Shown: positions 11,916-37,183 of the stretch, one piece after another | Position numbering within the stretch: the stretch's first letter is position 1 | Layout of the letters: every line of letters begins with the position of its first letter | The notes under the pieces: model-generated | The model's input: the letters and a program-made list of their open reading frames with translations, nothing else | The model's database searches: none | What the model was told of the DNA's origin: nothing | Position numbers and translations under genes: made by a program | Source: a virus | Taxonomy: Duplodnaviria > Caudoviricetes | Strand: one strand, 5' to 3' | IMG/VR virus record: IMGVR_UViG_3300019742_000001 | Length of the DNA: 64,000 nt

Positions 11916-12152
11916 TTAAATTTGAAATAAACTATTGTCTAATATTTCTTGTGTTTCTGGTAATTCTTTTCCTACTGAACCAGTATATCGGTCTTTTAAT
12001 ACCTGACCCGTTGTTATATTCTTAATATAAACAGCATCATACATTTTTCTAACTGGAATCGTTCTACTTGGGTTTGTATCAATGGTCTGATGAATATACT
12101 CAATCTTACCATCACCATAAATATACTTGTATACAAAAAATGAATTTTTCAT
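11916..12152 (-). CDS. hypothetical protein, C-terminal LFxI tag
   Basis: ORF ends DNSLFQI. Confidence 0.6.
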   Translation of the reverse strand: MKNSFFVYKYIYGDGKIEYIHQTIDTNPSRTIPVRKMYDAVYIKNITTGQVLKDRYTGSVGKELPETQEILDNSLFQI

Positions 12153-12433
12153 ATCTCAAATAAACCATCATCTTCTTTGAAGTGGTCATCAGTATACCCT
12201 GTAACTATAAATCCTGTCTCTAACAATCTTTCTATTGTCGGAACATCTAATCTATCAATTTGTATTGGATTTCCAGTATCCATCATTTCACTAATATAAT
12301 CAAGTGACGATCTTAAACCAAAACCTGTACTATTACGAAATGCTTTGATCAAATGAATCTTACCATTACCATTACCAGTTCTGGCTCTGGCTTTAAGTTG
12401 TTTACCAATATGCACATAATATGATTTTTTCAT
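12149..12433 (-). CDS. protein with ribosomal L7/L12 CTD-like motif, C-terminal LFxI tag
   Basis: KIHLIKAFRNSTGFGLRSSLDYI vs the L12 KIxVIKxVRxxTGLGLKEAKDLV pattern. Confidence 0.55.
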   Translation of the reverse strand: MKKSYYVHIGKQLKARARTGNGNGKIHLIKAFRNSTGFGLRSSLDYISEMMDTGNPIQIDRLDVPTIERLLETGFIVTGYTDDHFKEDDGLFEI

Positions 12434-12449
12434 AATGTTACCTTTAAAT

Positions 12450-12523
12450 TGGCGGGGGATGAAGGTATCGATCCTTCGACGCTAGATTCAAAATCTAGTA
12501 TGATTCCATTTCACCAATCCCCT
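12450..12523 (-). tRNA. trnQ: tRNA-Gln(TTG)
   Basis: CTAGA-ttTTGaa-TCTAG, G73, T loop ATCGATA, CCA. Confidence 0.88.
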
Positions 12524-12526
12524 ATA

Positions 12527-12835
12527 TTATGGGAAAAACTTATCCCAATCTGTTTTGTTTAAATACATCGTTCTTGATTTCAAGATCATATCAAGTGAAG
12601 GATAGGTTGTCAATATTTCTTTTACATTATCTTCACCTACAACAGCACTGAATCCTGTTGGGTACAATTCATCAATTATTTGAGGGTTTCCATTAGGTTC
12701 TGTTACAACTTCCACAACAAGAATCCCTTTGTCCCACCATCCTTGACAAGTATCACAAGGTTCATAGTCAAAAAATTCTGGTTTGTCATCCACAATATCA
12801 TCTTTTGACTTTCTACACCAAAAACATATTTTCAT
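12527..12835 (-). CDS. Cys-rich hypothetical protein (start reassigned to MKICFWC)
   Basis: CFWC...PCDTC; RBS GGAG; the longer ORF overlaps tRNA-Arg. Confidence 0.65.
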   Translation of the reverse strand: MKICFWCRKSKDDIVDDKPEFFDYEPCDTCQGWWDKGILVVEVVTEPNGNPQIIDELYPTGFSAVVGEDNVKEILTTYPSLDMILKSRTMYLNKTDWDKFFP

Positions 12836-12857
12836 ATTAAATCTCCGTATTATATAT

Positions 12858-12930
12858 TGGCACCCTATGGAGGAGTCGAACCTCCGTAAGCTGGTTTCGT
12901 AAACCGACCACCGTTTCCCACGGATAGGGT
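12858..12930 (-). tRNA. trnR: tRNA-Arg(ACG)
   Basis: ttACGaa loop, T arm GGAGG-TTCGACT-CCTCC, CCA; atypical D arm. Confidence 0.75.
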
Positions 12931-12939
12931 ACATACAAT

Positions 12940-12968
12940 ACTTTATCATTTGTTTTTCATTTAGTCAA
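12940..12968 (-). promoter_or_regulatory. sigma70-type promoter TTGACT-17-TAAAGT
   Basis: Direct reading. Confidence 0.65.
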
Positions 12969-12987
12969 TATTCAATTTTCAAAGAAC

Positions 12988-13025
12988 AAAAAAGGGTCAC
13001 ATTCTTATATAGAGTGTGACCCTTT
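12988..13025 (-). terminator. intrinsic terminator with upstream antiterminator arm (13053-13065)
   Basis: AAAGGGTCACACTCT/AGAATGTGACCCTTT stem plus U tract. Confidence 0.8.
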
Positions 13026-13056
13026 CGGATAGGTTATGTAAAACTTTCTTACAAGG

Positions 13057-13188
13057 TCACATTCTGTCTCTCACTCTGCCCACACTATAATCAAACCACT
13101 GATTACAAATCGGACGTAACGCTATCATTTCGAAATTCTCTGATTTCGAATGAGTCATCGTTAGATTTGTTGTGAGTTGTGTAGTCAT
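13057..13188 (-). CDS. 43-aa leader peptide (absent from ORF track)
   Basis: MTTQLTTNLTMTHSKSENFEMIALRPICNQWFDYSVGRVRDRM; RBS AAGGA; promoter TTGACA-17-TATAGT at 13220-13248; stop codon lies inside the antiterminator arm. Confidence 0.7.
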   Translation of the reverse strand: MTTQLTTNLTMTHSKSENFEMIALRPICNQWFDYSVGRVRDRM

Positions 13189-13269
13189 TTTTGTGATTCC
13201 TTGTTTAATTTTTTCTTCTACTATAAGTTATTTATGCTTTTTTGTCAACTTTTTTGAAACTTTTTTTCA

Positions 13270-13743
13270 TTATTTAAATTTATCTCGTAACTTATTGTTT
13301 TTATTAATCTTTTCTGTTGCACATTCTTCTTCAATTTCAACATCATCATCAGATTCAGTGAAGATTGATGTAATCTTTAATTTAATTTTTTCTGTCACTG
13401 GTTCTTCTTTTATTTCCTCTTCTACTGGAGCAACTTCAATGTTCACAGACTGTTTAACTCTAACCTGTTCATTCCAAGGTTGCATAAAGAACCCTCTGTC
13501 ACCCTCAGTGATAGCCGATACTTCCAATTTAGCATTATATACACCGTCTTCAAGTCCTTCTATGACAGTTTCTAAAGGTGGAATAGCGAATTGTACATTA
13601 TCCCCACCAGTTTTAGCTTTAAATCCGTAATCAATACCATTAACTTCAACAACAAACTTAAAACGTAACATTTCTTGTTGTATACCCTCTACCAATACTG
13701 GCATAGATAATGATTTTGTCTTCCTCATTTCAAACGTTAACAT
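13270..13743 (-). CDS. hypothetical protein, late/structural module
   Basis: Coupled ORF at the end of a late operon. Confidence 0.7.
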   Translation of the reverse strand: MLTFEMRKTKSLSMPVLVEGIQQEMLRFKFVVEVNGIDYGFKAKTGGDNVQFAIPPLETVIEGLEDGVYNAKLEVSAITEGDRGFFMQPWNEQVRVKQSVNIEVAPVEEEIKEEPVTEKIKLKITSIFTESDDDVEIEEECATEKINKNNKLRDKFK

Positions 13744-13973
13744 TACGTTCCTCCATTCAATGAAAGGTCAATGACCTGTAATACAGTTATATTTATATTT
13801 TCATAGTCATCAAGAACAACTACTTTTTTAATTTTTACAGTTGGTATCGGTTGTTGTACCCTAACTATTGATACTCCACCACCACTACCACCACCACTTG
13901 AATAATCTGGTACTGGTATTTCAACAGTTATCTGTCTATTACGTTTACCCATCCATTTAGGATATACACTCAT
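13743..13973 (-). CDS. hypothetical protein
   Basis: Coupled ORF with a Gly-rich linker. Confidence 0.6.
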   Translation of the reverse strand: MSVYPKWMGKRNRQITVEIPVPDYSSGGGSGGGVSIVRVQQPIPTVKIKKVVVLDDYENINITVLQVIDLSLNGGT

Positions 13974-13983
13974 TTAATACTCC

Positions 13984-14718
13984 TTATGATGGATATGGTT
14001 TAATATATGTTACTTGTCGGTTGTCAGCATTCTCTCCTGTAACAACAATCGTATACAATAAAGTTACTCCATCATCATCAAATACTTGTATCGTATCAAG
14101 AGCACTTACACCTGTACCAACGGTTGATATTCCAACTTTGTTAGTTTGCATCGCCCTACCACGTCTCGCCTCTTCATAAGCAAGATTCAAGGTGGTTTCT
14201 TGTGATGATGTCAGACCTTGTGCTGGAACTTCTACTTCAACGTATACAGGAACTTCTACAACAACTTCTTTTGTCTGAACAACTGTACTAACCAACAATG
14301 AAGTTTGGGAACTTATAGACTTCAGTCCGTCTGGATCAAATCCATAAGGATCTTTTGGATTGTCATTAAGATCATATGCATACAGATTACCTATAATGTT
14401 TGTAGTAGTCGTAGCGTCTCGTTGTCGTATAATCCAGTCATTTAAAAGAAAATATGTATCACCTAATTTCTCTGTATCAGAAATTGGTCTTCCACCCTCA
14501 GTACCAAATGCTTGTAAATACTTAGAATTATCATATAATGATATCCATTCCTTCCAATCACTATACAATTGTTGTTTAACATCAACTTCTGACACATCAG
14601 AAAGAATCCAAATGGTTTTTGATGGTCCGTCAAACATTACAACATGATCAAGGGTAACAGGATCATTATTAAACTTATCCCAATATTCCCACTGTCCTGC
14701 CCATCCACCTTGCAACAT
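13984..14718 (-). CDS. putative virion structural protein
   Basis: LYSDWKEW motif; late operon. Confidence 0.65.
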   Translation of the reverse strand: MLQGGWAGQWEYWDKFNNDPVTLDHVVMFDGPSKTIWILSDVSEVDVKQQLYSDWKEWISLYDNSKYLQAFGTEGGRPISDTEKLGDTYFLLNDWIIRQRDATTTTNIIGNLYAYDLNDNPKDPYGFDPDGLKSISSQTSLLVSTVVQTKEVVVEVPVYVEVEVPAQGLTSSQETTLNLAYEEARRGRAMQTNKVGISTVGTGVSALDTIQVFDDDGVTLLYTIVVTGENADNRQVTYIKPYPS

Positions 14719-16325
14719 TATCTAATCTCTTTCCAATTGAAGGCAACCACTACTTCAATTGGTACTGTATTGTAAAGTTTTGCCCTCAAAGTATAGTGGT
14801 CTGGTTCCAACTCAATATCAGATTTTCTTATAATAATTTCTGTCAACATACTAAAAAAATCGGACAAACTGATGTGTTCATCACCTGTTACTATCCATGA
14901 CATAACAACCTTACCGTCAATTGAACCAGATGCACTAGCAACTTCTAATGCTGATTGAGGATATGATACTCCATTGTCCCACATTGGTGTATCTAATGTA
15001 TCATTTTTAACTAATTCTAGTAACCAAGGATTACCTGTGCTTGTTAATTCAGAAAGAGTAACCATAGTTGGTATGACAACTGACCTATTATCGGTGAGTG
15101 GTGACCCATACTGTTTTCTGGACCTAAAAGATGCTATATGAACCCAATCAACATCATCATCCACAGTTACAGGTTCATCGATGGAACCACCGTAAAGTTT
15201 CTCTGGTGGAGCAAACTTTCCTTCACATGCAACTTTTGCAGCAATACCATACAGGAATGCTGGGTTACCCAACGCACCTACATTTTCCTGTTCCATTGTA
15301 AAAGGAAGTGTACCTGTTCTCATGTATGGATTTGCAAGGTATCCCGCATGATTAAATTCGTGACAAACAATAGGAATACCGTCAATAACAAAACTGAATC
15401 TAACACGACCAGCACCTAACCACTGAAAGTCAATAATCATTATCTGTGACATACCCGGAACTAGTGATTTACCACTAACATTATTAGCATCATCTGATCC
15501 ATCTAGTCTATCTATATTCCATTCGGACTGAGGAACACAAACCTCTTCTATTGATCCATTACATGACGAACGGACACACACACTAATGACACCATCTGTC
15601 ATTTTGTAGTATAATCCATCACTGTCATCAAAAATACCCATTCTTCGAACAACATTAATATAATCACCGCCAGAAAATGCAGAAAACATTACTGTGGTCG
15701 CAACACCTGTTTGGTATTTGTGATAAAGGTTAGTTCTTCTCATACTTCTAGCGCCATTTGTAGTAGGATTTTCCATTACTACAAGATGTCTTGTTTCATC
15801 CCACGAAACTGTAGCACCAAGTTCTTCTGTTTCTGTAAATTCGTCAGACATAGAATTGTGAACGGGTTGATACTCACGAATAGTTGTAGTTTCCGATGTT
15901 TGTAGTTTACCAAACGCATCAAAACTAGGATCACCAGATTCAAAGGTTGTTGTTAACGCACCTCTTACATCAACTGATGCCTTGTTTGTTGGATCATTAC
16001 CACCTGTTATAACAATATCTTGTGTGTATAGTTCGTTGGTGGTACCTGTTGAAGTGGCGAATGTAACACCACCAACTTTCAATGATGTTCCAGACTCCAC
16101 ACTGTTCAGTATAGATTCCATTGAAACAACGATATGAAGATGTCCGCTGAATTGATCACCAGCGACGATTAACACATCACCGTCAAATCCATCATCTGTT
16201 AAGACTTTATCTCCAACACTAAAACTATTACTTCCATTAGTGTAATAAATAGTCACAGTTACAGTCTGTTTGGATTTTTTTCCTGTTCCATCAGGTGGCA
16301 TTTGTATATAATTTAATTCACTCAT
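14718..16325 (-). CDS. putative virion/tail-associated beta-rich protein (DAFGxL family)
   Basis: SFDAFGKLQTS, DFQWLGAGRVRF; TATAAATA at 16363-16370. Confidence 0.7.
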   Translation of the reverse strand: MSELNYIQMPPDGTGKKSKQTVTVTIYYTNGSNSFSVGDKVLTDDGFDGDVLIVAGDQFSGHLHIVVSMESILNSVESGTSLKVGGVTFATSTGTTNELYTQDIVITGGNDPTNKASVDVRGALTTTFESGDPSFDAFGKLQTSETTTIREYQPVHNSMSDEFTETEELGATVSWDETRHLVVMENPTTNGARSMRRTNLYHKYQTGVATTVMFSAFSGGDYINVVRRMGIFDDSDGLYYKMTDGVISVCVRSSCNGSIEEVCVPQSEWNIDRLDGSDDANNVSGKSLVPGMSQIMIIDFQWLGAGRVRFSFVIDGIPIVCHEFNHAGYLANPYMRTGTLPFTMEQENVGALGNPAFLYGIAAKVACEGKFAPPEKLYGGSIDEPVTVDDDVDWVHIASFRSRKQYGSPLTDNRSVVIPTMVTLSELTSTGNPWLLELVKNDTLDTPMWDNGVSYPQSALEVASASGSIDGKVVMSWIVTGDEHISLSDFFSMLTEIIIRKSDIELEPDHYTLRAKLYNTVPIEVVVAFNWKEIR

Positions 16326-16362
16326 CTATATAAAGTTCTCCTTAACTTTCATAACGTACATG

Positions 16363-16396
16363 TATTTATAGGGGGTAGTTGACCTACCCCCTATAA
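16363..16396 (-). promoter_or_regulatory. T4-type late promoter TATAAATA overlapping terminator hairpin TATAGGGGGTAG/CTACCCCCTATA
   Basis: Direct reading. Confidence 0.7.
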
Positions 16397-16417
16397 TACA
16401 ATAATTAAACCATTATG

Positions 16418-18598
16418 TTAAGCTGGGTTAGAGTAATTTCTTTCAAGTGGAGCAACCAAAGATACAGATGCTCCAGTGTTAGTAATTGTTCCTTCCGCTT
16501 GAACATATTGACCAGTGCTTAATCCGATAGCAACAACAACAATATCGGTTTCTGTTGAAGCTACACGACCACCTGTTTCATCACCATCATATGCATATGA
16601 GAACTGATATGATGAACCAGATGCACCATCAGGTACATTATTAGTAACATCAGATCCAACCTCACCAGAAGGTGATTTAATAACTTGAAATGCATTTGTT
16701 GTACCGAAGTCACCCGATGCAACTGATTTGTAATATGCGTAGAATACGGCATCTGAATCAGTAGACAAGTTATTGTTAAAGTTGATTGTAACTGTAACAA
16801 CCAATGGATATGTACGAGCAATACCAGAATAATCATTGAAAACAACATTGTTAGTATCAATTGGTTTCAAATCGTCAATGAAAACACCATCACTTGTCTC
16901 TAGTGTAGCACCAACAAACTCTGATAACAAGTCAGCAACATTACCATTACGACTTGTATCAACATCAATAGTTGTTTCTTGACGTAGTGACCACTGACAG
17001 AAGTCATAAACATTTTCTTTATCACCACCAGATGTGTGAGTATAAGGTGAATCAACTTTCTCATCACCAGAAGTAACAATATTATTAGCGTCAATAATAA
17101 CACTATAAGCATAGAAACCATCTTTTACAAAACGCTCTCCGCCACCTGATGATTTGTCCCAGATTGTCCATGTATTACCAGTATCAGTATTCATATCTGT
17201 GTTGTCTGAATCACCAGTTGTTGAACTAACGTAGTACCAACGAGCACCATCTACATTAGATAGTGAGTTTGTTGCATCATACGCTACATCACCTAATAGA
17301 TATGTTGTACCTGTTGCCCAATCACCTGTAATATTTACAACACCTGTACCTGACTGTGGATTAGGTAGATATGTGATATCAATAACATCATATGGTGATA
17401 CATCGGCAGTACCATCTGTATTTGAATCAATTTGTGTATCAGCAGTTGTTTCAAGGTTAAGGTCTGTTGCATTACTAACAGGGAAACGATACACGATATA
17501 TGTCATAGTAGTAACACCGATATCGGTTAGATTAGAATCAGCATAAACCTTACCACGCTCACGAACATACATTTTGAAATAAGCTGATAAATCAGTAACT
17601 AATGTTGCTGATTGTGATGCCTCAGATGCACCAGTTTCAACGATTGTTATCTCATAAGGACTAACAATACTTGCAACTGTATATGTATCTTCATTTAATG
17701 TTGTTCCTGTTACTGTAATTGAATCTCCAACTTGGAACACGTCTAATCTCGGTCCTGTTGATGTAATACCATTAACACCATCAAATGAAATATCACTTGA
17801 TCCTACAACTTGTGAGTAGATACGTACACCCTCATTAACAGGTCCAGTATACTCTGTATTAGATGTTCCAGCGGTAAATGAACTATCCTGTGCGAAATAT
17901 GGTTGGTCAGTATTATCAACCAAAGTACCCAATGATACAATACCTGATACCCTTTTGTTAACTGTATTATCAGCAAGAACTTCTGACCATCCAGCAGATC
18001 TGATCAATTTACTGGTTGTTGTCTCAAATATACCCTGTGTTACAACATTTGATGTCAATGTTGCAGTAACATCAGCAGTTCCTTCAGCTACTAATGTATC
18101 TGTTGCAACTAATGTGATTACAGTAGACGTTACACTATCAATAGTATAAATACCGTCATTTGATGACGAACCACTTACATTTAATGTATCACCTGATTTA
18201 TAATAATCCGTAAAATCAACTGCACCAGCAGTTGTAATTGTATCTGGGTTACCATCTGCAAAAGTCAAGTCTGTTACTGTAGCCGAAGCACCATCATCTG
18301 GAATCCAAGCATCAATGAATTCAAACTGCTCATTCGTGATTGATAGCATTGGAAAGTCAAATTTAGTGATTGATGCAGTATCTTGCCATCTGTCTTTAAA
18401 AAATGAATATAATGTCTGACCCGTAATACCATCACCAGACGTATCCATATTTCCTGTTCCTTTAAAGTGGAAAGTCTTGTCAACACAGTTAATGTGTATC
18501 TCATCCGTATAATAGTGACCATCCAAATTTCCTGTTCCTGCCGTCCATGATGTGTTAATATCATCTGGATCGACGATTGTGTTTACTATAAAAGCCAT
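16418..18598 (-). CDS. putative virion structural protein with internal repeats
   Basis: T/D/G-rich; repeated GDxLxVSGSxxNDGxYTIxSV units. Confidence 0.7.
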   Translation of the reverse strand: MAFIVNTIVDPDDINTSWTAGTGNLDGHYYTDEIHINCVDKTFHFKGTGNMDTSGDGITGQTLYSFFKDRWQDTASITKFDFPMLSITNEQFEFIDAWIPDDGASATVTDLTFADGNPDTITTAGAVDFTDYYKSGDTLNVSGSSSNDGIYTIDSVTSTVITLVATDTLVAEGTADVTATLTSNVVTQGIFETTTSKLIRSAGWSEVLADNTVNKRVSGIVSLGTLVDNTDQPYFAQDSSFTAGTSNTEYTGPVNEGVRIYSQVVGSSDISFDGVNGITSTGPRLDVFQVGDSITVTGTTLNEDTYTVASIVSPYEITIVETGASEASQSATLVTDLSAYFKMYVRERGKVYADSNLTDIGVTTMTYIVYRFPVSNATDLNLETTADTQIDSNTDGTADVSPYDVIDITYLPNPQSGTGVVNITGDWATGTTYLLGDVAYDATNSLSNVDGARWYYVSSTTGDSDNTDMNTDTGNTWTIWDKSSGGGERFVKDGFYAYSVIIDANNIVTSGDEKVDSPYTHTSGGDKENVYDFCQWSLRQETTIDVDTSRNGNVADLLSEFVGATLETSDGVFIDDLKPIDTNNVVFNDYSGIARTYPLVVTVTINFNNNLSTDSDAVFYAYYKSVASGDFGTTNAFQVIKSPSGEVGSDVTNNVPDGASGSSYQFSYAYDGDETGGRVASTETDIVVVAIGLSTGQYVQAEGTITNTGASVSLVAPLERNYSNPA

Positions 18599-18609
18599 TT
18601 GTTATCCTC

Positions 18610-18810: not shown

Positions 18811-18848
18811 AGTCTCACCTTTTATTTATGTTATTTTACCTTAACTTA

Positions 18849-20432: not shown

Positions 20433-20435
20433 ATA

Positions 20436-20951: not shown

Positions 20952-21806
20952 TTAGATTGTAAATAGATCCTCTCCGTCAAACTCAAAGAAATTCTTAGAT
21001 AACCGTTCCATACGTTTGTATCCTTGAGTGAAGACATTTGAACTACCACCACGACCAGTAACATCATTAGCAGCGATTGAAGCAAGAACGTTATATGCAC
21101 CCCACCGTGTATTACCAACACCACAACGGATCAAGTGACCCTCATAAGAATCAATGATAGCATCTGCCTGTCGTTCAGACAAAAACCCTGTATTACCAAC
21201 AGCGTCGGTCTTGATGTTACTACGAATGAATGACTCAAAAGTTTGTTGGGTCATAACCTCACGACTCCACTGATCAAATAGTGCGGTCATATCCTGAAAT
21301 TTACGAAGTTGAGTAGTAAAATCATCACGAATACGATCAACTAATTCACAATGAACGTGAGAGTAGGTCTTACCGAACATTTTACTCAACAAAGTGGTGT
21401 TATTACGACGACGATAGGCGGAAACTGAGAAACCAACAGCAGATTTTCCATCATAACCATTCCAGATTGAAATCTTGGTTTGAACAACTTCACCACCAAC
21501 AACGATATTGAAATCATCACCGTCAAGAATATAATCTCGTTGCCACTTGTTCTGTTTCCAACTAAGATGGTCATCAATTTCTGTGATAGGTAAATCAGAA
21601 AATGCCTCGGAAAAAACATCCTCAACTTCTTGGTTAGTGATCAACTTATAAATACGACCTACCGTACCAAGTAACTGACCATTTTCACCGTTCAATAATA
21701 CATCACGTTCAACATCAACATCTTCTGTGACACCTTCATCAGTGATAAATTGGGTTGATAATTGGTTACGAAGTACAGGGTAAAATGGATTGATTTGAGT
21801 AGTCAT
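20952..21806 (-). CDS. DUF932-like protein, C-terminal LFxI tag
   Basis: YKLITNQE, ISIWNGYDGKSAV, RWGAYNVL; start at MTTQIN with RBS AGGAG. Confidence 0.7.
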   Translation of the reverse strand: MTTQINPFYPVLRNQLSTQFITDEGVTEDVDVERDVLLNGENGQLLGTVGRIYKLITNQEVEDVFSEAFSDLPITEIDDHLSWKQNKWQRDYILDGDDFNIVVGGEVVQTKISIWNGYDGKSAVGFSVSAYRRRNNTTLLSKMFGKTYSHVHCELVDRIRDDFTTQLRKFQDMTALFDQWSREVMTQQTFESFIRSNIKTDAVGNTGFLSERQADAIIDSYEGHLIRCGVGNTRWGAYNVLASIAANDVTGRGGSSNVFTQGYKRMERLSKNFFEFDGEDLFTI

Positions 21807-21926
21807 ATATAATCTCCTGTTTAGAATGAATTGTTTCGTTCTCGACACAGAAAGATAATAACAAAACTACCCCGTTAAGTCTACTAAAAACTTAACAGGG
21901 TAATGTTTTTGGTATATGTAATGATT

Positions 21927-24149
21927 CTATACAGTTACAAACAAATCATTATCTTTTAGGTCTACCAGAATGGTTTGACCTTCTTCAACAGAACCTTTCA
22001 ACAACATTGTACCAATCTCTGTTTCCAAACGACCTGTTAAGTATCGTTTCAGAGGTCTAGCACCATATACAGGGTCATATGATACCGTTGCGACGTGTTC
22101 TGCAGCTTCATCTGTGATTTCCAGACCAATGTTCCGTTCTGCCAACCGTTTCTTAATGTCATTGAGACAAAGTTTAACGATTTCAGTTGTTTCATTACGA
22201 GTTAAAGGTTTAAAGGTAACAATATCATCAACACGATTCAAGAATTCTGGACGGAATCCCTTTTGTAGTTCTGACATCACCTTATCTTTTGCCGCATCTG
22301 TTACTTGACCATCTTGACCGATACCACTTAACAGGTATTGACTACCAATGTTAGAAGTCATAATGATTACAGTATTCTTGAAACTAACTGTCCGACCGTG
22401 ACCATCTGTGACACGACCATCATCAAGAATTTGAAGGAAAGTATTGAACACATCAGGGTGTGCCTTTTCAATCTCATCAAATAGGATAACTGAAAATGGT
22501 TTACGACGAACTGCCTCTGTTAACTGACCACCATCTTCATAACCAACATAACCGGGAGGTGCTCCTATCAGTCTGGAAACACTATGTTTTTCCCCATATT
22601 CTGACATATCAATACGGATAATGTTGTTCTCGTCATCAAACATTGACTCAGCAAGTGCTTTAGCCAACTCAGTTTTACCGACACCAGTTGGTCCCAAGAA
22701 AATGAATGATCCGATTGGACGGTTTGGATCTTTGATACCAGACCGACTACGAATAACTGCCTGTGATACCAGTGTGACCGCCTCTTCTTGACCAATCAAT
22801 CGTTTGTGAATCTCATCACCAATTTTAAGAATCTTTTCTGACTCACCTTCGGTTAAACGAGTCACTGGAATACCTGTCCAACGACTAACTACTGCAGCGA
22901 TCTCATCTTCATCAATAGCATCGTGTAACATACTACCACCATTGAATTCTAATAGAGTTTTTTCGTGGATATCAAGTTCTGTCTCCATTTTTGGAATGAT
23001 ACCGTATTTCAACTCTCCAGCACGTTCCAATACATTTTTTCGTTCACAAACTTCCAACTCATTCTTGGCGTTTTCAAGTAGTTCACGAAGATTTGCAACA
23101 CCTTTGATTGCGTTCTTTTCGGTGTTCCATTGAGTCATCAGGTCATCACATTCAACACGAAGTTCTACCAACTCACTTGTAATAACATCAACACGGATCT
23201 GTGAATTCTGATCAACCTCTTTTTTCAAAGCAGATTCTTCAATTTCAAGTTGTTGAATTCGTCGTGTAATTGAATCCAATGATGCTGGTAAACTATCAAG
23301 TTCTGTACGAACCATTGAACACGCCTCATCAACCAAATCAATCGCTTTGTCTGGTAAGAATCGGTCAGCAATATAACGATGTGATAACTTTGCCGCAGAT
23401 ACTAATGCTGAATCACGAACAGTAATTCCGTGATAAACCTCGTATGTTTCTTTCAAACCACGAAGAATTGAAATCGTATCCTCTACAGTTGGTTGTTCTA
23501 CCAAAATTGATTGGAAACGACGCTCTAATGCAGAATCTTTCTCAATGTTCTCACGATACTCATCAAGGGTGGTAGCACCAATACAACGAAGAACACCACG
23601 AGCTAATAATGGTTTTAGTTGATTTCCAACATCTACACCATTACTTGCACCCATACCAACCATATTATGGATCTCATCAATAAATAACATGATTTGACCA
23701 TCTTTTGATTGAACATAGTCAAGAATGAACTTCACTCGTTCCTCAAGTTCTCCCTGCATTTTGGTTCCTGCCATCAATGCACCAAGGTCAATTGAATAGA
23801 TAACCTTTTCTTTAAGTGAATCAGGAACGTCACCAGAGACGATTCGTTGTGATAAACCTTCAACAACCGCAGTTTTACCTACTCCCGGTTCTCCAATCAG
23901 AACAGGGTTATTCTTAGTTTTACGACATAAAATTTGAACCATACGTCGAATCTCAGAGTCACGACCAACTACAGGATCAAGTTCTCCTTGTCGTGCTTCT
24001 TCAACAAGATCACGACCATATTTTAATAAATCGTCATTAATCAAACGATCATCAATTTCTTCTTCTTCAACCTGTGGAGTATAATCAGGTCGTTCAACTC
24101 TCATACGAATCGCATCATCGATTGGTGGGGTTGTGTTCCATGCAGTCAT
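21927..24149 (-). CDS. clpB: ClpB AAA+ disaggregase lacking the N-terminal domain
   Basis: [28 protein letters not shown]-domain coiled coil, [29 protein letters not shown]. Confidence 0.93.
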
Positions 24150-25187: not shown

Positions 25188-25655
25188 TTAAATTATATTT
25201 TGCCACCAACGACCTCTTTGTGGTTGTGGTTGTGGTTGTGGTTGTGGTTGTGGTTGTGGTTCTTGAAAACTATTCACATCCCATACATTTTGTTCTGATC
25301 TATTTCTCCGTTGTGCTTCCCTACGACGAAGTTGTTGTTGTATCTGAACTTCCATAACACGACGAATACGTTCCCATTCCCTTCGTGTCATCATAGGTTC
25401 TTGCCGTCTTACTGGTCTTTGACCTGTATCCCAAGGATCAACAGTTGTACGAACTTGTAATGTAACATCACCTTGAATAACAACACCTTGATTGATAGTT
25501 CCTTGAACTACCCCCCATTGAACAGCTAAATTGTATAATGCCTTTTTATTACTTCTATTTCGTAAAACTATACTCATCTTTTCAGACGGATTTGTTATGT
25601 TAGGGTTTGTATCAGGATGGATTAACTTGACTAGATCTGTAAAACTGATTTCCAT
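25188..25655 (-). CDS. J-domain-like (HPD) protein with QP repeat tail
   Basis: LVKLIHPDTNP...EKM at the N-terminus. Confidence 0.5.
   Translation of the reverse strand: MEISFTDLVKLIHPDTNPNITNPSEKMSIVLRNRSNKKALYNLAVQWGVVQGTINQGVVIQGDVTLQVRTTVDPWDTGQRPVRRQEPMMTRREWERIRRVMEVQIQQQLRRREAQRRNRSEQNVWDVNSFQEPQPQPQPQPQPQPQRGRWWQNII
25218..25261. repeat. (TGGTTG)n hexamer microsatellite, ~7 units, encoding QP repeats
   Basis: Direct reading. Confidence 0.9.
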
Positions 25656-30240: not shown

Positions 30241-30819
30241 TCATATTCTAAACAATCCTTCGTCAAAATATTTTTCCACTATTGCAATCTTATTTTCCTC
30301 AATATAATCATCTGGTAACATAACAGATCTAAATAAACTTGGTGTGTTCTCAACATCAGAACTTGTGTTTGGTGTTGATACCATAGTTATAATACCATTT
30401 GGTGACACGGATGGTAAGATGTTATCCCACATTTCATTCAATGACCCCGAAAAAGAACTAATCTCATCAATAAAAATACGGTCAACACGTCTACCATCCA
30501 TTCTATACGATGTGTTACTTGAAAATATATCCCTCGAAAACCTTTGTGTATCACGTCCTACTATACGTTGGCACATTAGTTGTACTGTTAATGTCATCAT
30601 ACGATGAGGTGTTATATATACAGAATTTGGAGTCTCAATAAATTTATTAACCAGTGCATATGTTTTACCTGACATTCTTGGTGACCATATACACAGATTA
30701 TCAGTCTCTTCTAAATATCTATCCCACATTTCAGTATAAGGTCTAGTAGCAACATTTTCAAGACCATGTTCGTTATTACGGATTAAATTCTCTATACTTA
30801 ATTCTGTCTCCTGACTCAT
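30241..30819 (-). CDS. stand-alone terminase-large-subunit-like P-loop ATPase domain, C-terminal LFxI tag
   Basis: SPRMSGKT, IFIDE, MVSTPN; no nuclease domain. Confidence 0.6.
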   Translation of the reverse strand: MSQETELSIENLIRNNEHGLENVATRPYTEMWDRYLEETDNLCIWSPRMSGKTYALVNKFIETPNSVYITPHRMMTLTVQLMCQRIVGRDTQRFSRDIFSSNTSYRMDGRRVDRIFIDEISSFSGSLNEMWDNILPSVSPNGIITMVSTPNTSSDVENTPSLFRSVMLPDDYIEENKIAIVEKYFDEGLFRI

Positions 30820-30994
30820 TAGAAACCTCCCTCACCAAACCACACCTTTTACAATAAACCTGTATCAGTGTATATACTCCATCCCGATTGATGTTTGGTT
30901 TGTTACTATTGGGTATAAATTCAACCCATCTGTGTCTGTATGGCACAAAGTCGTGTCCAAAATACTTACATTTTAATGACATCTTTTTTACCAA
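30776..30994 (-). CDS. small hypothetical protein (CxxxGH...CKRC)
   Basis: Typical phage Zn-binding mini-ORF. Confidence 0.45.
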   Translation of the reverse strand: MVKKMSLKCKYFGHDFVPYRHRWVEFIPNSNKPNINRDGVYTLIQVYCKRCGLVREVSNESGDRIKYREFNP

Positions 30995-31902: not shown

Positions 31903-31904
31903 AC

Positions 31905-32195
31905 CTATTCTCCTCCTTCTACATGATCTTTCAATAAATCTTTTAGAATTGTAACTTCAATAGTATCAGGTATAATAATTGCTTTTACTTGACCATCAAA
32001 TAAATCCTTCACAGCACTTTTAATACTAGCAGTAACCTCGTTCAAAATATTACTTGGATACGATTGAGTGTTAATCCGAAAAATTAACACGCTACCATTC
32101 TCTACATCTTCTTTATTAATTGAACCAACAAACTCAATAATTTCTGAGGATGCTGGTGTAGGATTTAACTTGAATTCACTTTTTTCAGTAGCCAT
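31905..32195 (-). CDS. hypothetical protein
   Basis: ORF with RBS. Confidence 0.6.
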   Translation of the reverse strand: MATEKSEFKLNPTPASSEIIEFVGSINKEDVENGSVLIFRINTQSYPSNILNEVTASIKSAVKDLFDGQVKAIIIPDTIEVTILKDLLKDHVEGGE

Positions 32196-32196
32196 T

Positions 32197-32562
32197 TTAT
32201 CTCTTCTCCTGTTTTATATTTTTTAATCGTTCTTTTTCAATTTGTAATGTTTGCACAAAAGCATCTATCTGATCTTCTCCACGAAAAATAAAGGCTCCTT
32301 CCACTTCAATATCTCCACGGAATAGAACCCTAAAAGCACCCTTTATTCGTCGCCATATTGTCCGTAATCGTCTATTCCATCTAGGGGTATCCCATACTTC
32401 ATATACTGACCTACAACCAATCCAGACCTCTAAATAGATATCTTTACATTCTTTGTCAGTACACACCTGAAATGTAAGTGCATCATCACCCATACAAGCA
32501 CAGGATGTTCTCCATACATTGTCATCACCAAGTTTACTAATTTTCTCTATTTCATTTGACAA
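32197..32562 (-). CDS. hypothetical protein
   Basis: TTG start, GGGGA RBS. Confidence 0.55.
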   Translation of the reverse strand: MSNEIEKISKLGDDNVWRTSCACMGDDALTFQVCTDKECKDIYLEVWIGCRSVYEVWDTPRWNRRLRTIWRRIKGAFRVLFRGDIEVEGAFIFRGEDQIDAFVQTLQIEKERLKNIKQEKR

Positions 32563-32688
32563 TTAAGTTTCCCCTTATCCGCTATTTCAATATACTCAAT
32601 TATATCACCAACATAAAACTCTTCCACCCCATTGAATTGTTTAAAAAAATCATACAGTTCTCGTAGTTTTACATCTTTGATTTCATTT

Positions 32689-33108
32689 TCATTTGCCAAT
32701 TAAGTTTCCCTCCAATGTCTCTTCAAACACCAAACACGGTTTCTTTAACTTATCCATTTGTTGTATCATATTCTTTGATCCAGCAGTTCCACCACAACTC
32801 ATAAAGACCATTGCAATATCAGTGTATTTTGCCATATCACCATTTCTAAGATGACCTGCTCGTTTACCATGTCGATCCCAATCAGCAGGAAATTTGGTCA
32901 ATTTCAAACCATACTTCTCTGCTAATTGTTCACCAATAGTATCAACACCTCTTGCTGTTCCACTTACGATTTCAGTAATCTTACCACACCATTCACATGA
33001 CGTAAACATGTCATCTATTAGTTTACACTCATCCAAGGTCATCTGAACTTTTTGGTTATTTACTGTTTTTAATCCAAGATCTCTACTACCAGCAATTATA
33101 CATTTCAT
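32689..33108 (-). CDS. YspA/DUF2493 SLOG-family protein
   Basis: IIAGSRD, IVSGTARGVD, FPADWDRHGKRAGHLRN. Confidence 0.85.
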   Translation of the reverse strand: MKCIIAGSRDLGLKTVNNQKVQMTLDECKLIDDMFTSCEWCGKITEIVSGTARGVDTIGEQLAEKYGLKLTKFPADWDRHGKRAGHLRNGDMAKYTDIAMVFMSCGGTAGSKNMIQQMDKLKKPCLVFEETLEGNLIGK

Positions 33109-33392
33109 ATTTCAAATAGATCCTTATCTTCTTTAAAATGGTCATCTGATGTCGTAATAGGTAAAGGTAAACCACTATCAATATCGTCATATATGGCATG
33201 AAACCAACCACCAGATCTAAATGGTGATGTTTCAGGTAAACCAAAATCTGACATACCACCACACTCAAGAACTACCTCCCTACAAGGATTTTCTCCAACA
33301 TTGATAATTTCCCCATCATTATCAACAATATACATTTTTCCGTCAAACATTTTTCCGTCAAAAGTATTGAAATACCTATCACCCGCCATCAT
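33105..33392 (-). CDS. hypothetical protein, C-terminal LFxI tag
   Basis: Ends DDHFKEDKDLFEI. Confidence 0.6.
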   Translation of the reverse strand: MMAGDRYFNTFDGKMFDGKMYIVDNDGEIINVGENPCREVVLECGGMSDFGLPETSPFRSGGWFHAIYDDIDSGLPLPITTSDDHFKEDKDLFEI

Positions 33393-33583
33393 ATCTGAAA
33401 TAGATCCTCTTCATCTTCAAAATGTTCTGGTACAATAGGTTCTTCTGGTATTGTTGATTTCTGACCAAACATACCTGACAATACATCACCAGAAATTGGT
33501 TGTACTGAAGTAATTTCTGTCATAATAGTTGGATACATATCATACAAGTGATCTGTTCCATAAAGATCAAACTCGTCCATCAC
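33389..33583 (-). CDS. hypothetical protein, C-terminal LFxI tag
   Basis: Ends EHFEDEEDLFQI. Confidence 0.55.
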   Translation of the reverse strand: MMDEFDLYGTDHLYDMYPTIMTEITSVQPISGDVLSGMFGQKSTIPEEPIVPEHFEDEEDLFQI

Positions 33584-35820
33584 ACCACCTCTATTGTACT
33601 GAAACCATCTTCCTTCGTAACTTTGTATGTCCCATCAACACCAAAGTCAGCAACTTCTTCTCTATGTGACACAACAAACACCTTCAAATTATCTTCTCGT
33701 TGTTTCATTCGGATAATATCAAATGTCTTTTCAATACCATGTGAATCAATGGAACTATCCAACAACTCATCCAACACTAGGATGTCAAGATAGGAACCAG
33801 CTTGTCGCCTCGCCACATCCATCATGGCGAACTTTAATGCCAAATCTATAGACTTACCCTCTCCACCTGACATATTACCAAACTCACAGTCTCCTACTCC
33901 ATATCCCTTGATTGTTCCATCTAACCATGCATCAAGCTCAATGTAATAATTATGACCTGTTTCACTCAGATAATGATTCGTCTGTTGTTGTAGGAAAGGA
34001 ATTATATTACCGATAGCATATTGTTTGACATTAGTATCTTTCAATGTCTCTTTAATATACTCAAGGTAATCCTTCATCACATTCAATTTCTTTGTTTCAC
34101 CATTAAATACAGATACTTCTGACTCTAATTGTGTCTTTGTTGTGACATTAGTTTCGTATTCAAGTTCAATCCTATCACAAATTTCCTTCTGACTGTTATA
34201 AATTCGTGTTTCTGTTTCAAACTTGGTCGTTAATCGTTCTTTATCTCTCTGTAGATCCTTGTACTGATCATACATTGACTGTTTCTCATCAATCACACTC
34301 TGAACAATACTAATATCAGATTCAATTACATACTTGTCATTGTCCAATTCTTCAAGTTCTTTTTCAATCTCTGGTATCTCAACGAATTTTATACCTTCAA
34401 TTCGCTTGTCGTTCTCATCAAATTCTTTCTGTTTCTCTTCCACACCAGAAAGGGCAACAAGATGTTTCTCAAGTTGTCGTTTCTTAACAATCTTTTCATT
34501 GATTGTTTTTAACGACACCTCAAACTCTTCTCTATCATTCTTGTTCGTTGCGATCAAATCTTCCAATTCACCACGATTTACCTTAACCAAATTGATCTGT
34601 TCGGTTAGTTCTCCAACCAATTTGTCGATGTGGTCTTTGATGTGTTCAGGATCAACCTCTTGAAAACAGGTGGGACATGTTGTCTCTTCGGTTACAGTAT
34701 GATCTGTCCATTTAGACAACTCCTTCTCCAATCGTGACATTTCATTGGTAAATGTCACATACTCACCCATCAACTTACTACCTGTTTCTTTCAAAACATC
34801 AATGTTTTCAGTCAGTTCTGTTGACATATTTTCAATATTGTCAAGTTTTTCAAGAACCTTTTGGATCTTAACCAACTTCTCACGCTGTTCTGTAAGGTCA
34901 CCAATGGTTTCATTACGTTTCTCTAATGATGTGATCTCACCCTGTAACAGACTTATTTTTTGTGTCACCTGACCTATTTTTGTAGTCAGTTCTGTTTTTT
35001 TATCCATCAACCCTTGTCGTTCGGTCTTTTTATCACCAATCTGACTCTCAAGTATCGGACCCTCTGTGAATAACTGCTCGTTATCTACATTCAACTGACA
35101 CAATTTCAGATTCGCTTCGTCTACAGAGTTCTTATATTCAGACATGTTTGGGACAACACTCTCTGAGATTATCATTTCAAGTTCTTCTACACGTTTTTGT
35201 TTGAACCCGATCTCCATATCAATCTCAGATAATCGTTTTGTCACACCACCAAGTTTTGTGTTGGTATGTTCTGTCATCTTAGAATAAATCTCAAGATTAA
35301 AGAATTTTTCAATGAACTTTCGTTTTTCTGCTTTAGGTGTATTGAAGATAGACACCATATTATTAGCATTCTGAAACAAGATTGCTTGAGCCGCCTTGAA
35401 GTCCATACCTATAAGGTCGTGTTCCAGTTCCATTTGAAACACACGTTTATCTGACAATTTTGGAACTGGAACACCATCTTTAACAAGTTCTAATATTCCC
35501 GGTTTAATACCTCGGTGGATCATATATGAAATTCCATCCTTCTCAAAATGAAACTTCACTTCACACTGTTTACCATTCTTCCAATTTATGATTTTTGGTA
35601 GAGGAACGCCTTTACTGGTCTGACCAAACAATGCAAAAGGTATGGCTTCAAGAAAACTTGTCTTTCCTGCACCATTTGAACGGTCTTTGTCCTTATCGTG
35701 ACCTAAGACTAAGTTAACCCCTTCTTCCAGATTGATCGTTTGCCATTGACCCCCATAAGAGAAAAAGTTCTTTAATTCCAACTTCTTACATATAATTTTA
35801 CTCATTTGTTTCTCCATCAC
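33580..35820 (-). CDS. gp46: gp46-like recombination endonuclease subunit (Rad50/SbcC)
   Basis: KNFFSYG, NGAGKT, CPTC zinc hook, MSGGEG, LDELLDSSID. Confidence 0.93.
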   Translation of the reverse strand: MMEKQMSKIICKKLELKNFFSYGGQWQTINLEEGVNLVLGHDKDKDRSNGAGKTSFLEAIPFALFGQTSKGVPLPKIINWKNGKQCEVKFHFEKDGISYMIHRGIKPGILELVKDGVPVPKLSDKRVFQMELEHDLIGMDFKAAQAILFQNANNMVSIFNTPKAEKRKFIEKFFNLEIYSKMTEHTNTKLGGVTKRLSEIDMEIGFKQKRVEELEMIISESVVPNMSEYKNSVDEANLKLCQLNVDNEQLFTEGPILESQIGDKKTERQGLMDKKTELTTKIGQVTQKISLLQGEITSLEKRNETIGDLTEQREKLVKIQKVLEKLDNIENMSTELTENIDVLKETGSKLMGEYVTFTNEMSRLEKELSKWTDHTVTEETTCPTCFQEVDPEHIKDHIDKLVGELTEQINLVKVNRGELEDLIATNKNDREEFEVSLKTINEKIVKKRQLEKHLVALSGVEEKQKEFDENDKRIEGIKFVEIPEIEKELEELDNDKYVIESDISIVQSVIDEKQSMYDQYKDLQRDKERLTTKFETETRIYNSQKEICDRIELEYETNVTTKTQLESEVSVFNGETKKLNVMKDYLEYIKETLKDTNVKQYAIGNIIPFLQQQTNHYLSETGHNYYIELDAWLDGTIKGYGVGDCEFGNMSGGEGKSIDLALKFAMMDVARRQAGSYLDILVLDELLDSSIDSHGIEKTFDIIRMKQREDNLKVFVVSHREEVADFGVDGTYKVTKEDGFSTIEVV

Positions 35821-36043
35821 CGTAAAGATACGATTTTATCTCATTAACCACATCATGTCCTTTGTGACCAATCGAATATCGGTGTTTACCACTCATATCC
35901 AAATGCACTACTTTAAGACACAAATCAAGTTTTCGTAACAACCTTTCAGCTTCAGACTCTCTATCAATCATCATCCCCACCTGAATATGGTTGTATTGAA
36001 CGAATCTCAATAGCCTTAATTTGTTCAGAATCAAGATTACCAT
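35798..36043 (-). CDS. hypothetical protein
   Basis: ORF; true start uncertain. Confidence 0.4.
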   Translation of the reverse strand: MVILILNKLRLLRFVQYNHIQVGMMIDRESEAERLLRKLDLCLKVVHLDMSGKHRYSIGHKGHDVVNEIKSYLYGDGETNE

Positions 36044-36290
36044 CTTCGTCTTCGTAATCTAACAACTTCCTACTGGTAGTAGCGTCAGCAATAAGTTTGT
36101 CAGCAGACATCTTAATATAAGAATGTACCTTATACTCATTACTCTCAACAAAATCATCCAATGTTCTACGATAAACTTCTGTCCAATGTTCTGGACATAA
36201 ATGATAAACTCTGTCAATCACTTCTCCCTTTGTAAAAACCTCACATTGAACACCTTCGGTAATACCACAAACATCACATTTATCTTCCAT
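35964..36290 (-). CDS. Zn-binding hypothetical protein
   Basis: CDVC...CPEH; RBS GGAG. Confidence 0.6.
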   Translation of the reverse strand: MEDKCDVCGITEGVQCEVFTKGEVIDRVYHLCPEHWTEVYRRTLDDFVESNEYKVHSYIKMSADKLIADATTSRKLLDYEDEDGNLDSEQIKAIEIRSIQPYSGGDDD

Positions 36291-36299
36291 TTTATCTCC

Positions 36300-36815
36300 T
36301 TAGTCTATCTCAAATATTTTTTCATCAAAATGTTGTACTGGTTTCTTTTCTTCTACAAGTTCTTTTATATCTACATTTGGTGGTGTTCGTATAATAAGAC
36401 TTTCCATATGATGCATTGATTCATAATAATCTCTTCCATCCATCGATCTTGTGTTCAACCGTGAGTAAAATTCTTCACCTTCTGATACTCCAAACATACC
36501 ACTCATATCAGTGCCTTGTAACACCTGAAAATAACTTATGAATCTATTGTAATACCCAAACGATCTTCCACCTCTTTCATACTCTTCCACCCAATACATT
36601 GTAACCAAACGATGTGATTCAAATACTATCTGATCTACAACATAATCAGTCGATCCATAATTCAAACCAGAAGCATAATTCATTGTCATTGGTTGTGCCA
36701 CCCGAACCGCATGGTAATCATCCCTCAATCTTTCATTCAAATCCGTATCATAAGGTCCACGAATCTCCTGTTTTGGTAGACTTGTGTTTTGGTGTTGTAC
36801 TATATAGGTTTTCAT
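36300..36815 (-). CDS. hypothetical protein, C-terminal tag variant
   Basis: Ends QHFDEKIFEID. Confidence 0.6.
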   Translation of the reverse strand: MKTYIVQHQNTSLPKQEIRGPYDTDLNERLRDDYHAVRVAQPMTMNYASGLNYGSTDYVVDQIVFESHRLVTMYWVEEYERGGRSFGYYNRFISYFQVLQGTDMSGMFGVSEGEEFYSRLNTRSMDGRDYYESMHHMESLIIRTPPNVDIKELVEEKKPVQHFDEKIFEID

Positions 36816-37183
36816 ATACTAAATAACTCGTCATCAAAGTGTGTTTTCGGTTTAGGATATACAACAAAGTTCGGTGGATAATCCACAATATGATCTATAC
36901 TAAAGACCAGATGCCACTTAGGATAGAAATAGTCATAATCAACATCACAACTCTTCAAATAACATCCTTTGTATTTCTTCGTATCAAATTTATTTCGACC
37001 AATATCAGATATAAAATCTTCCAATTTATAACCAAAATCATTTTCCCCAACAACTAACACACCCTCTATGACACGATTTGTTGTTACATCATATCGAAAA
37101 CTTAATGTTGATATTTGGGTAGTTTCTTGGTGTATATTTACCTCCAAATAATCATCAATATAATCTGATATATCGTTACCCAT
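36812..37183 (-). CDS. hypothetical protein, C-terminal LFxI tag
   Basis: Ends THFDDELFSI. Confidence 0.6.
   Translation of the reverse strand: MGNDISDYIDDYLEVNIHQETTQISTLSFRYDVTTNRVIEGVLVVGENDFGYKLEDFISDIGRNKFDTKKYKGCYLKSCDVDYDYFYPKWHLVFSIDHIVDYPPNFVVYPKPKTHFDDELFSI

Follow-up and report, generated by a model that had tools for sequence, protein, structure and literature searches.

The known cases of phage proteins docking on a hub by their C-terminal tails are three T4 proteins, which bind the sliding clamp. The tails of these three, gp43, gp33 and gp55, follow the pattern [S/T]-L-D-F-L-[F/Y/L], are nearly identical and can be interchanged (PMC2988020); in NC_000866 they read SLDFLFG, SLDFLYEAND and TLDFLL. 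A second kind of short peptide, the SUMO-interacting motif (SIM), has, by definition, acidic residues next to a core of four residues, three or more of which are hydrophobic (PMC12751080), and the bacterial Bil systems, described as antiviral defence, are built from the ubiquitin-like protein (Ubl) BilA, the E2 BilB, the JAB protein BilC and the E1 BilD (bioRxiv 10.1101/2023.09.26.559546). Here we analysed a C-terminal tag carried by at least eight proteins in a stretch of 64,000 nucleotides (hereafter the window, which means the whole stretch) from the IMG/VR virus record IMGVR_UViG_3300019742_000001 (Duplodnaviria; Caudoviricetes). The tag consists of a hydrophobic anchor, two or three acidic residues, and L-F-x-[I/V/L/M] at the free C-terminus or one residue from it. 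Like the T4 clamp tails, it is a short hydrophobic-acidic peptide at the extreme C-terminus of unrelated T4-type proteins, with a few trailing residues tolerated. Unlike in T4, where the polymerase shares the motif of the other clamp-binding proteins, in this phage the polymerase, RNase H and ligase have another tail, Phi-x-x-Phi-[F/Y] (Phi, hydrophobic residue), and gp55 has neither; moreover, T4 has three such proteins, whereas this phage has at least 26, mostly tiny and of early type.

Translation of the open reading frames (ORFs) returned the eight tagged C-termini on the minus strand of the window, at the coordinates collected in Table 1, and all of them were as reported in a preliminary description of this DNA. 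L-F-x-I directly before the stop ends 7 of the 79 non-overlapping minus-strand ORFs of the window, and the eighth tagged ORF ends in I-F-E-I-D-stop; inside the same 79 ORFs, L-F-x-I occurs only once in 19,013 residues. The expectation from composition is 2e-4 per site, which gives a binomial P of 3e-21 for the ORF ends, so that the comparison with a composition background, proposed together with the first observation of the tag, put it far above expectation. When the tagged proteins were compared with each other by BLAST, the alignments covered the last 11–14 residues only, except for two possible pairs of paralogs; hence, the earlier statement that the protein bodies are unrelated is correct apart from these pairs. 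On the basis of their sequences, the 64-aa protein at 33389–33583 is possibly a paralog of a tagged 69-aa protein beside gp32 (L010 1707–1916), and the 171-aa and 123-aa proteins of the window are possibly paralogs of each other. Among the tagged window proteins, Pfam and PHROGs recognised DUF932 as the sole family, and the DUF932 label previously put on the protein at 20952–21848 was thus borne out. As for the 192-aa protein, formerly called an ATPase, sub-threshold P-loop matches agree with that label, which has no other basis.

Judged from codon usage and from distant orthologs, the tail is a C-terminal short linear motif conserved at the level of the protein, because the Leu and Ile codons vary and orthologs at 25–43% identity keep the tail. 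In particular, Leu is written TTA, CTA, TTG and CTG, Ile is written ATT, ATA and ATC, and the variable position of the tail is written with seven different codons. The tails at 12149 and 33105 are alike at the DNA level, as had been noticed before, though they differ at synonymous sites (CAC/CAT, TTC/TTT, TTA/CTA and GAG/GAA). Across the orthologs of the 171-aa and 192-aa window proteins the tail is kept down to 25% identity (range about 25–44%): those of the 192-aa protein carry the tag at 44% and 31% identity, while those of the 171-aa protein, at 25–35% identity, keep [Y/H/C]F-acidic-[I/L/M]F-x-[I/V/L/M] followed by 0–2 residues. The preliminary description had also considered that the tail could be a by-product of a nucleotide-level translational-coupling cassette, made of an ATGA overlap and a purine-rich Shine-Dalgarno-like run. 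In fact, five of the eight window tags close in an ATATGA stop/start overlap; but, as already observed then, the tag stays at 11916 and 20952, which close with TAA and have no coupled gene. In addition, the tag was found on both strands, with TAA or TAG as the stop, ahead of a tRNA gene or of intergenic DNA, and in gene arrays with a spacing of 2–3 nt and no overlap. Since the codons of Leu, Phe and Ile change, as does the variable position, while the amino acids remain constant, and the peptide is retained in orthologs at 25–43% identity, the synonymous variation refutes the coupling cassette, to which we assign a practically negligible probability. The comparison of synonymous and amino-acid conservation that had been recommended to separate these two explanations therefore gave a clear answer: the amino acids are kept and the codons vary.

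The window is part of a 239,309-bp metagenome contig, on which it was placed by exact-protein look-ups (contig coordinate = 154,168 minus window coordinate). A 157,422-bp stretch, stitched without gaps or overlap mismatches, spans contig 81.9–239.3 kb. The window contains the T4-type genes gp55, gp47, gp46 and UvsX, and the 157-kb stretch contains gp32, RNase H, an NAD-dependent ligase, gp44, gp62, UvsW, gp41 and the family-B polymerase gp43; because the contig carries this T4-type replication gene set, the phage is an uncultured jumbo T4-like phage. The eight tagged proteins are real but the count was too low, as 26 tagged ORFs, from 20 body families, were found in the 157-kb stretch (binomial P against internal occurrences 1.6e-32), which is roughly a tenth of the ORFs examined (26/275). 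The tagged proteins are mostly small (median 99 aa), mutually unrelated and fast-evolving: 22 of the 167 ORFs of up to 150 aa are tagged, compared with 4 of the 108 longer ones. They include the UvsW helicase (..ETLFTIE), a DUF7352 protein between gp44 and gp62 (..DDKLFEV) and the 69-aa protein near gp32. The last 6.7 kb of the contig hold 14 small tagged ORFs (..LFEV/I/L), 11 of which form one array (L145 11.4–15.1 kb), with three more just upstream.

Close relatives of the window were not found in the INPHARED phage collection by megablast, nor in IMG/VR scanned with a single protein; after these simple searches gave none, relatives were gathered by profile scans. In this way 82 gp46 homologs, at 68–24% identity, were used to collect 80 metagenome loci, to which whole IMG/VR records were added. 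From 68 tags in about 2,000 distinct ORF products of the relatives, the consensus is [L/F/I]-[D/P]-[E/D]-[D/E]-L-F-[E/K/x]-[I/L/V/M], with hydrophobic positions at i, i+4, i+5 and i+7, and it is followed by no residue in 48 tags, by one residue (mostly Glu, or Asp) in 19 and by two in one. The tag is conserved, with phage-specific versions, across a large clade of uncultured 100–240-kb T4-like phages from sediments and mats. In many relatives conserved tagged genes flank gp46 and gp47, and among the enzymes tagged in relatives are one of the UDG family and one Ro60/TROVE protein. In nine genomes, 93 tagged proteins fell into 67 body families, only seven of which are tagged in more than one genome. 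The DUF932 orthologs of G005 and G006 keep the tag in their own dialect (..SDLFVVS and ..GDLFII), the DUF932 homologs in L077 and G009 lack it, and the UvsW orthologs of G001, G005 and G007 have no tag; from these comparisons the tag is portable, as it is gained or lost among the orthologs of other phages.

When each family is counted once per genome, the versions of the tag are uniform inside a genome and different between genomes. The version of this phage is L-F-E-[I/V], that of G005 is L-F-[I/T]-L and that of G007 is P-[E/D]-[E/D]-[L/M]-F-[K/R]-M; the difference between genomes was significant for both the last hydrophobic residue (chi-square 52, P 5e-6) and Pro at position −3 (chi-square 32, P 5e-6). 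Thus, the tails of unrelated proteins change together, which points to one shared reader, and we consider it very likely that all tagged proteins are read by a single partner. Separately, in G002 (IMG/VR 3300001580_000011), at 49.1–66.3 kb, seven small ORFs carry a second tag, [D/N]-E-Y-L-[K/R]-R-[M/I/L]-G plus 1–2 residues, and lie interspersed among the L-F-tagged ORFs of one array, which suggests that this genome has two alternative address labels.

For the shared partner, all the ORFs of 17 related genomes were grouped into 524 protein families and ranked by their presence in tag-bearing versus tag-poor genomes. The top three discriminators were an E2-like 293-aa protein, an E1 and a JAB protein (6/7 tag-bearing versus 1/10 tag-poor genomes), with a Ubl family just behind, and no core phage protein was singled out by this family profile. 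The cassette formed by these four genes was the only gene set with a distribution following the tag in the 17-genome screen. When the per-genome tag counts were restricted to genomes with an assembled clamp region, the nine genomes with the cassette had 26, 12, 4, 15, 3, 6, 1–3, 8 and 9 tags, G008, G010 and G052, which lack it, had 0–1, and G013, in which the cassette is uncertain, had 0. In a five-protein core-gene tree the tag-bearing lineages are scattered, and G007 (cassette, 13–15 tags by filter) is the sister of G008 (no cassette, 0–1 tags), with a support of 0.92. A DNA-pattern proxy, which is noisy (YTN reads Phe too and TRR reads Trp too) and was used in aggregate only, gave, in about 65 records, 86 matches versus 44 controls with the cassette and 17 versus 23 without it (chi-square about 7, without phylogenetic control). 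In 41 non-redundant records, a count of the tags lying no more than 10 kb from the clamp was uninformative, since tags are seldom there.

The cassette is kept directly after gp44-gp62-clamp in every cassette-bearing genome (nine related genomes), and G008, G010 and G052 lack it there. The E1 is a short protein of 197 aa, matched by Pfam ThiF and by the PADLOC E1-E2 models at 3e-17, and the JAB peptidase has a Pfam Prok-JAB match. The 293-aa protein has 106 homologs and an invariant H-Y-H...C, and its AlphaFold2 (AF2) model (pLDDT 85.5) gave weak fold matches (best E 0.04), nearly all of which were ubiquitin E2 enzymes; on this model it can be weakly assigned as E2-like. The nearest language-model clusters of the Ubl candidate are the ThiS and SAMP2 families, and its orthologs end in ..RPY[E/D]VAG plus 0–2 residues; by analogy, residues past VAG would fit a JAB peptidase that uncovers the terminal Gly. 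Such pre-processing of the Ubl by JAB has been shown in Bil systems (bioRxiv 10.1101/2023.09.26.559546). Like in Bil, the four roles of Ubl, E2-like protein, E1 and JAB appear to be encoded together, and the Ubl has residues beyond the terminal Gly; unlike in Bil, the cassette belongs to a phage, is a neighbour of the replication clamp gene, and is accompanied by a C-terminal tag found across the proteome, while its E1 is short and its E2 assignment weak.

Taking together the co-distribution and the composition of the motif, we tentatively propose, as the likeliest of the partners considered, that the tail may be read by the phage's own Ubl conjugation machinery. In this case, the tail would be an address label, or docking peptide, for the Ubl/E2-like/E1/JAB system, and would act like a SIM, its acidic run leading into a hydrophobic core of four residues, with the Ubl or the E2-like/E1 enzymes as the docking site. 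The tagged proteins would be substrates of Ubl conjugation or, alternatively, interchangeable adaptors, each bringing its own host or phage targets to the conjugation machinery, and such a scheme would parallel, in a phage, the adaptor families of the SIM-containing or F-box type. Regarding composition, the consensus [D/E]-[D/E]-L-F-x-[I/V/L/M] offers a four-residue core with three hydrophobic positions and an acidic flank, as in SIMs. Like SIMs (PMC12751080), the tag is a loose motif on many unrelated, fast-evolving proteins, and SIMs are read by a Ubl of the same genome; unlike SIMs, it is strictly C-terminal and has Phe as the second core residue, and the binding of a Ubl is here hypothetical. 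The F-box, BC-box and poxviral PRANC adaptors are comparable in the variability of their bodies. These adaptors share a ligase-docking element, consisting of domains of 40–50 residues or helices of 10–15 residues which bind cullin-ligase adaptors, and the likeness, which is by analogy only, lies in variable bodies with one C-terminal docking element, expanded arrays and rapid turnover. To our knowledge, no bacterial or phage Ubl is known to read a SIM-like motif.

On the other hand, several observations weigh against the Ubl machinery as reader. Only two independent cassette-less lineages (G008, and the G010/G013/G052 clade) have enough sequence for a count of tags, which leaves the association thin in phylogenetic terms; G009 carries the cassette, yet its 189 kb show a single clear tag, and G002 has ten tags, with its clamp region outside the contig. 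In addition, most of the compared records are only 35–85% complete. As for the motif, Phe is atypical as a SIM core residue, the strict C-terminal position is not SIM-like, and the i, i+4, i+5, i+7 spacing would also suit an amphipathic helix instead of a SIM-type strand. A lysine-rich acceptor patch upstream of the tag was looked for and rejected, as Lys/Arg are depleted there (1.13 versus 1.65 per 12 residues). Finally, the E2 fold assignment is weak, and the link to the Ubl machinery, drawn from co-distribution and composition, is a tentative one.

The sliding clamp, by analogy with T4, is a candidate hub. In this phage the clamp is the 245-aa protein after gp62 (L010 15378–16115): sequence methods gave weak PCNA matches at most, and its recognition was decided by an AF2 model (pLDDT 94) and a fold search, in which the 50 best PDB matches were all PCNA (E from 2e-12). 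The gp43 of this phage ends in ..QAFKAFFG, and among its 120 best relatives the full-length polymerases (more than 100, down to 36% identity) end in Phi-x-x-F-F(-G), never in L-F-x-I. RNase H ends in ..[I/L]-x-x-[L/M/V]-Y in six genomes, and the ligase in ..LMEMLG or ..LMSMLEY. The tag is spaced Phi-x-x-x-L-F-x-Phi and the clients are spaced Phi-x-x-Phi-[F/Y], with RNase H and ligase showing Phi-x-x-Phi-[Y/L]; by their sequences, the classical clamp clients share a tail like the PCNA-interacting peptide (PIP), distinct from the tag in both spacing and residues. As gp43, RNase H and ligase carry a different conserved motif, the tag is, on the same comparison, not a canonical sliding-clamp tail, and the initial idea of docking at the canonical clamp pocket is not supported, the more so as gp55 has neither tail. 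Across the clade, the gp55 homologs have poly-Lys or other non-hydrophobic ends (L013–L092 set), many of them poly-Lys/Arg, and none has a hydrophobic clamp-binding epitope, a feature retained in the gp55 homologues of T4-family phages (PMC2988020); late transcription may be coupled to DNA differently in this clade. No gp33 homolog was recognised in the phage: the tagged 69-aa protein near gp32 was considered as gp33 and dropped, as it has no similarity to T4 gp33 and the gene order is rearranged with respect to T4, and its 176-aa neighbour, considered as gp59, has no similarity to T4 gp59. As a separate observation, in many relatives the family-B polymerase is called only as an N-terminal piece of about 600 aa (P0106–P0110, P0182–P0204; G007, G008, G009, G017), which suggests split polymerase genes or intein/intron insertions in part of the clade.

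Alternatively, the reader could be a core protein of phage replication or recombination, bound by the tail at a non-canonical site; the candidates are a second site on the clamp, gp32, UvsX and gp46/gp47. UvsW, the UDG-family enzyme, the DUF932 protein and the protein between gp44 and gp62 belong to the tagged set, and many relatives have conserved tagged genes on the flanks of gp46 and gp47, which also agrees with such a reader. Moreover, gp32 has itself an acidic amphipathic tail, ..DDTDALLAELQDM (..ALLAELQDM), although unlike the tag. Partners of comparable kind are known: acidic-hydrophobic motifs bring many repair proteins to eukaryotic RPA, and the acidic aromatic tails of T7 gp2.5 and gp4 dock on the T7 polymerase. 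The SSB tip (..DDDIPF) and these T7 tails consist of an acidic run and a hydrophobic end which docks in a pocket of the partner. The tag resembles them in having an acidic run and then a hydrophobic C-terminal end; however, they have one or two carriers and many readers, whereas this phage has many carriers, and neither gp32, with the end given above, nor the tags, which end in L-F-x-[I/V/L/M] and not in Pro-Phe, show an SSB tip. Furthermore, the clamp, gp32, UvsX and gp46/47 are all encoded in the tag-poor genomes G008 and G010, the conserved tail of gp43 (more than 100 relatives), RNase H and ligase is another one, the gp55 homologs lack a hydrophobic tail, and most of the tagged set consists of tiny array genes, which number in the dozens and exceed the clients known for a replisome hub. 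In view of this, a core replisome reader appears unlikely.

The small size and the arrangement of most tagged proteins agree with another explanation, in which the tail binds a host hub (RNA polymerase, beta clamp, SSB or a nucleoid/membrane factor, for instance) and tethers many small early proteins to it by one handle. The versions of the tag would then differ as the hosts differ, and the tag-free lineages would have changed host or strategy. Indeed, the tagged proteins are mostly small and fast-evolving, with the bias towards short ORFs reported above (22/167 versus 4/108), and they lie in arrays typical of host-takeover genes, of which the array of 11 ORFs and the three upstream of it are the best example; each genome has its own version of the tag, and the family profile points to no core phage protein. 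The bacterial beta-clamp-binding motif is QL[SD]LF, and the [D/S/G]-L-F core of the tag recalls its positions 3–5. Only this part fits, however: D, E or P precede L-F, and Gln, which is not among the common residues, is absent at the required positions. Besides, this explanation leaves the co-distribution with the Ubl cassette unaccounted for, and UvsW, UDG and the Ro60 homolog are tagged too, which would be an odd mix for a single takeover target. All considered, we regard a host reader as possible, though slightly less likely than the Ubl machinery.

Since the phage codes for both ClpP and a ClpB-like AAA+ protein, and the tag is found at the extreme C-terminus of many early-type proteins, the tail might also be a C-terminal degron, handing early proteins to the host ClpXP, ClpAP, Lon or FtsH, or to the phage ClpP, after the early phase. 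The single trailing residue, mostly Glu or Asp, as though a terminal negative charge counts, would be in line with this. The distribution of the Clp genes, however, is patchy and does not follow the tag: among the related genomes examined, the ClpB-like gene was found only in this phage, G005 and G006, ClpP (L141 12638–13183) only in this phage, G005 and G017, and the tag-rich G007 (85% complete) and G001 have neither; the RimK-like ATP-grasp ligase is found in tag-bearing and tag-free genomes alike. For this reason ClpP, the ClpB-like protein and the RimK-like ligase were rejected as readers of the tag. The ClpB-like protein has a coiled-coil middle domain and IGQ where ClpA/ClpC have the ClpP-docking tripeptide, and ClpB as a hub, proposed at first, is not supported given this missing docking loop and its absence from G007 and G001. 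Its own end, evaluated as a possible tag, was discarded because orthologs end in ..GLVISVV and ..NGLIVQ. Known ClpX or ClpA C-degrons end in LAA-COOH, which the motif does not resemble; 20 of the 68 tags have one or two extra residues, unlike ssrA-type degrons, which need non-polar last residues and a free alpha-carboxylate, and enzymes needed late, such as UvsW, carry the tag. We thus hold a degron to be quite improbable. In passing, the usual N-terminal domain is missing from the ClpB-like disaggregase, and the 157 kb examined showed no phage ClpX/ClpA partner.

Tails that dock on hubs belong to a known kind; the scale observed here, the presence of a distinct motif beside another one for the clamp, and the possible connection with a viral Ubl are undescribed in the literature searched, in which we found no description of the tag motif, nor of a phage Ubl system with a recognition tag. 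Whatever reads the tag is a central node of the infection programme, and the tag is a handle to assign a common pathway to dozens of proteins without an assigned function. If the Ubl/E2/E1/JAB machinery were the reader, the targets of a virus-encoded bacterial-type Ubl system would be indicated for the first time, and the tag would be the first Ubl-recognition motif outside eukaryotes.

Table 1. Tagged proteins of the window, context genes and Ubl cassette (window coordinates unless stated otherwise).
Feature	Coordinates	Strand	C-terminus	Remarks
78-aa protein, function not assigned	11916..12152	-	..LDNSLFQI-stop	TAA stop, no coupled gene, tRNA-Cys next; no Pfam/PHROG family
94-aa protein	12149..12433	-	..HFKEDDGLFEI-stop	ATATGA overlap with next gene; no Pfam/PHROG family
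298-aa DUF932 protein	20952..21848	-	..FDGEDLFTI-stop	Pfam E 7e-6
192-aa protein, weak P-loop signals	30241..30819	-	..YFDEGLFRI-stop	P-loop matches sub-threshold (Pfam, PHROGs)
95-aa protein	33105..33392	-	..HFKEDKDLFEI-stop	
64-aa protein	33389..33583	-	..HFEDEEDLFQI-stop	Just downstream of gp46
171-aa protein	36300..36815	-	..HFDEKIFEID-stop	Between gp47 and gp46; tag plus one acidic residue
123-aa protein	36812..37183	-	..HFDDELFSI-stop	Just downstream of gp47
ClpB-like two-ring AAA+ protein	21927..24149	-	..NDLFVTV	Not counted as tag
gp46 (Rad50/SbcC-like)	33580..35820	-		Untagged context gene; served to collect relatives
gp47 (Mre11/SbcD-like)	37176..38207	-		Untagged context gene
gp55, late sigma-like factor	42063..42554	-	Seven terminal lysines	Neither tag nor clamp-binding tail
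Cassette: ThiS-like Ubl, E2-like 293 aa, ThiF E1, JAB	L010 16799-20361 (contig 179.1-182.7 kb)		..VAGV (Ubl)	Directly after gp44-gp62-clamp

Besides the genes in Table 1, the window contains 24 tRNA genes and large fibre proteins, and the 157-kb stretch further codes for ClpP, the RimK-like ATP-grasp ligase and the ThiF/JAB gene pair. Two proteins of about 1,500 aa (window 44741–49252 and 50405–54904) have near-identical C-termini (..GVSHKVDFTYIAIYRTW), and each is paired with a protein of about 360 aa (49264–50349 and 54917–55981); these two tandem modules are probably duplicated pairs of a fibre and an accessory gene. At 25188–25655, a 155-aa ORF has a (Pro-Gln)6 repeat close to its C-terminus (..PQPQPQPQPQPQRGRWWQNII).

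Among the relatives, L013 (LGVE01168725.1, 125,653 bp), a contig of the 'Candidatus Izimaplasma bacterium HR2' bin, is a close one (gp46 63%, clamp 79% identity). It is a phage contig within a bacterial bin and gives at most a weak hint at the host, in conflict with the peptidoglycan-binding endolysin of the phage. In L140 13777–18253, genes for an RtcB RNA ligase, a nicotinate phosphoribosyltransferase, a NUDIX protein, an NAD synthase and an isochorismatase-family protein are clustered, which looks like a phage module for NAD salvage and RNA repair. Finally, L142 14105–19813 and L145 1185–10810 encode paralogous proteins of 150–300 aa with the common start M-[K/R]-L-x-x-[Y/F]-[I/L]-x-E, which, by analogy, resembles a T4-type capsid-targeting leader; the genome thus appears to use an N-terminal tag on one protein set and a C-terminal tag on another.

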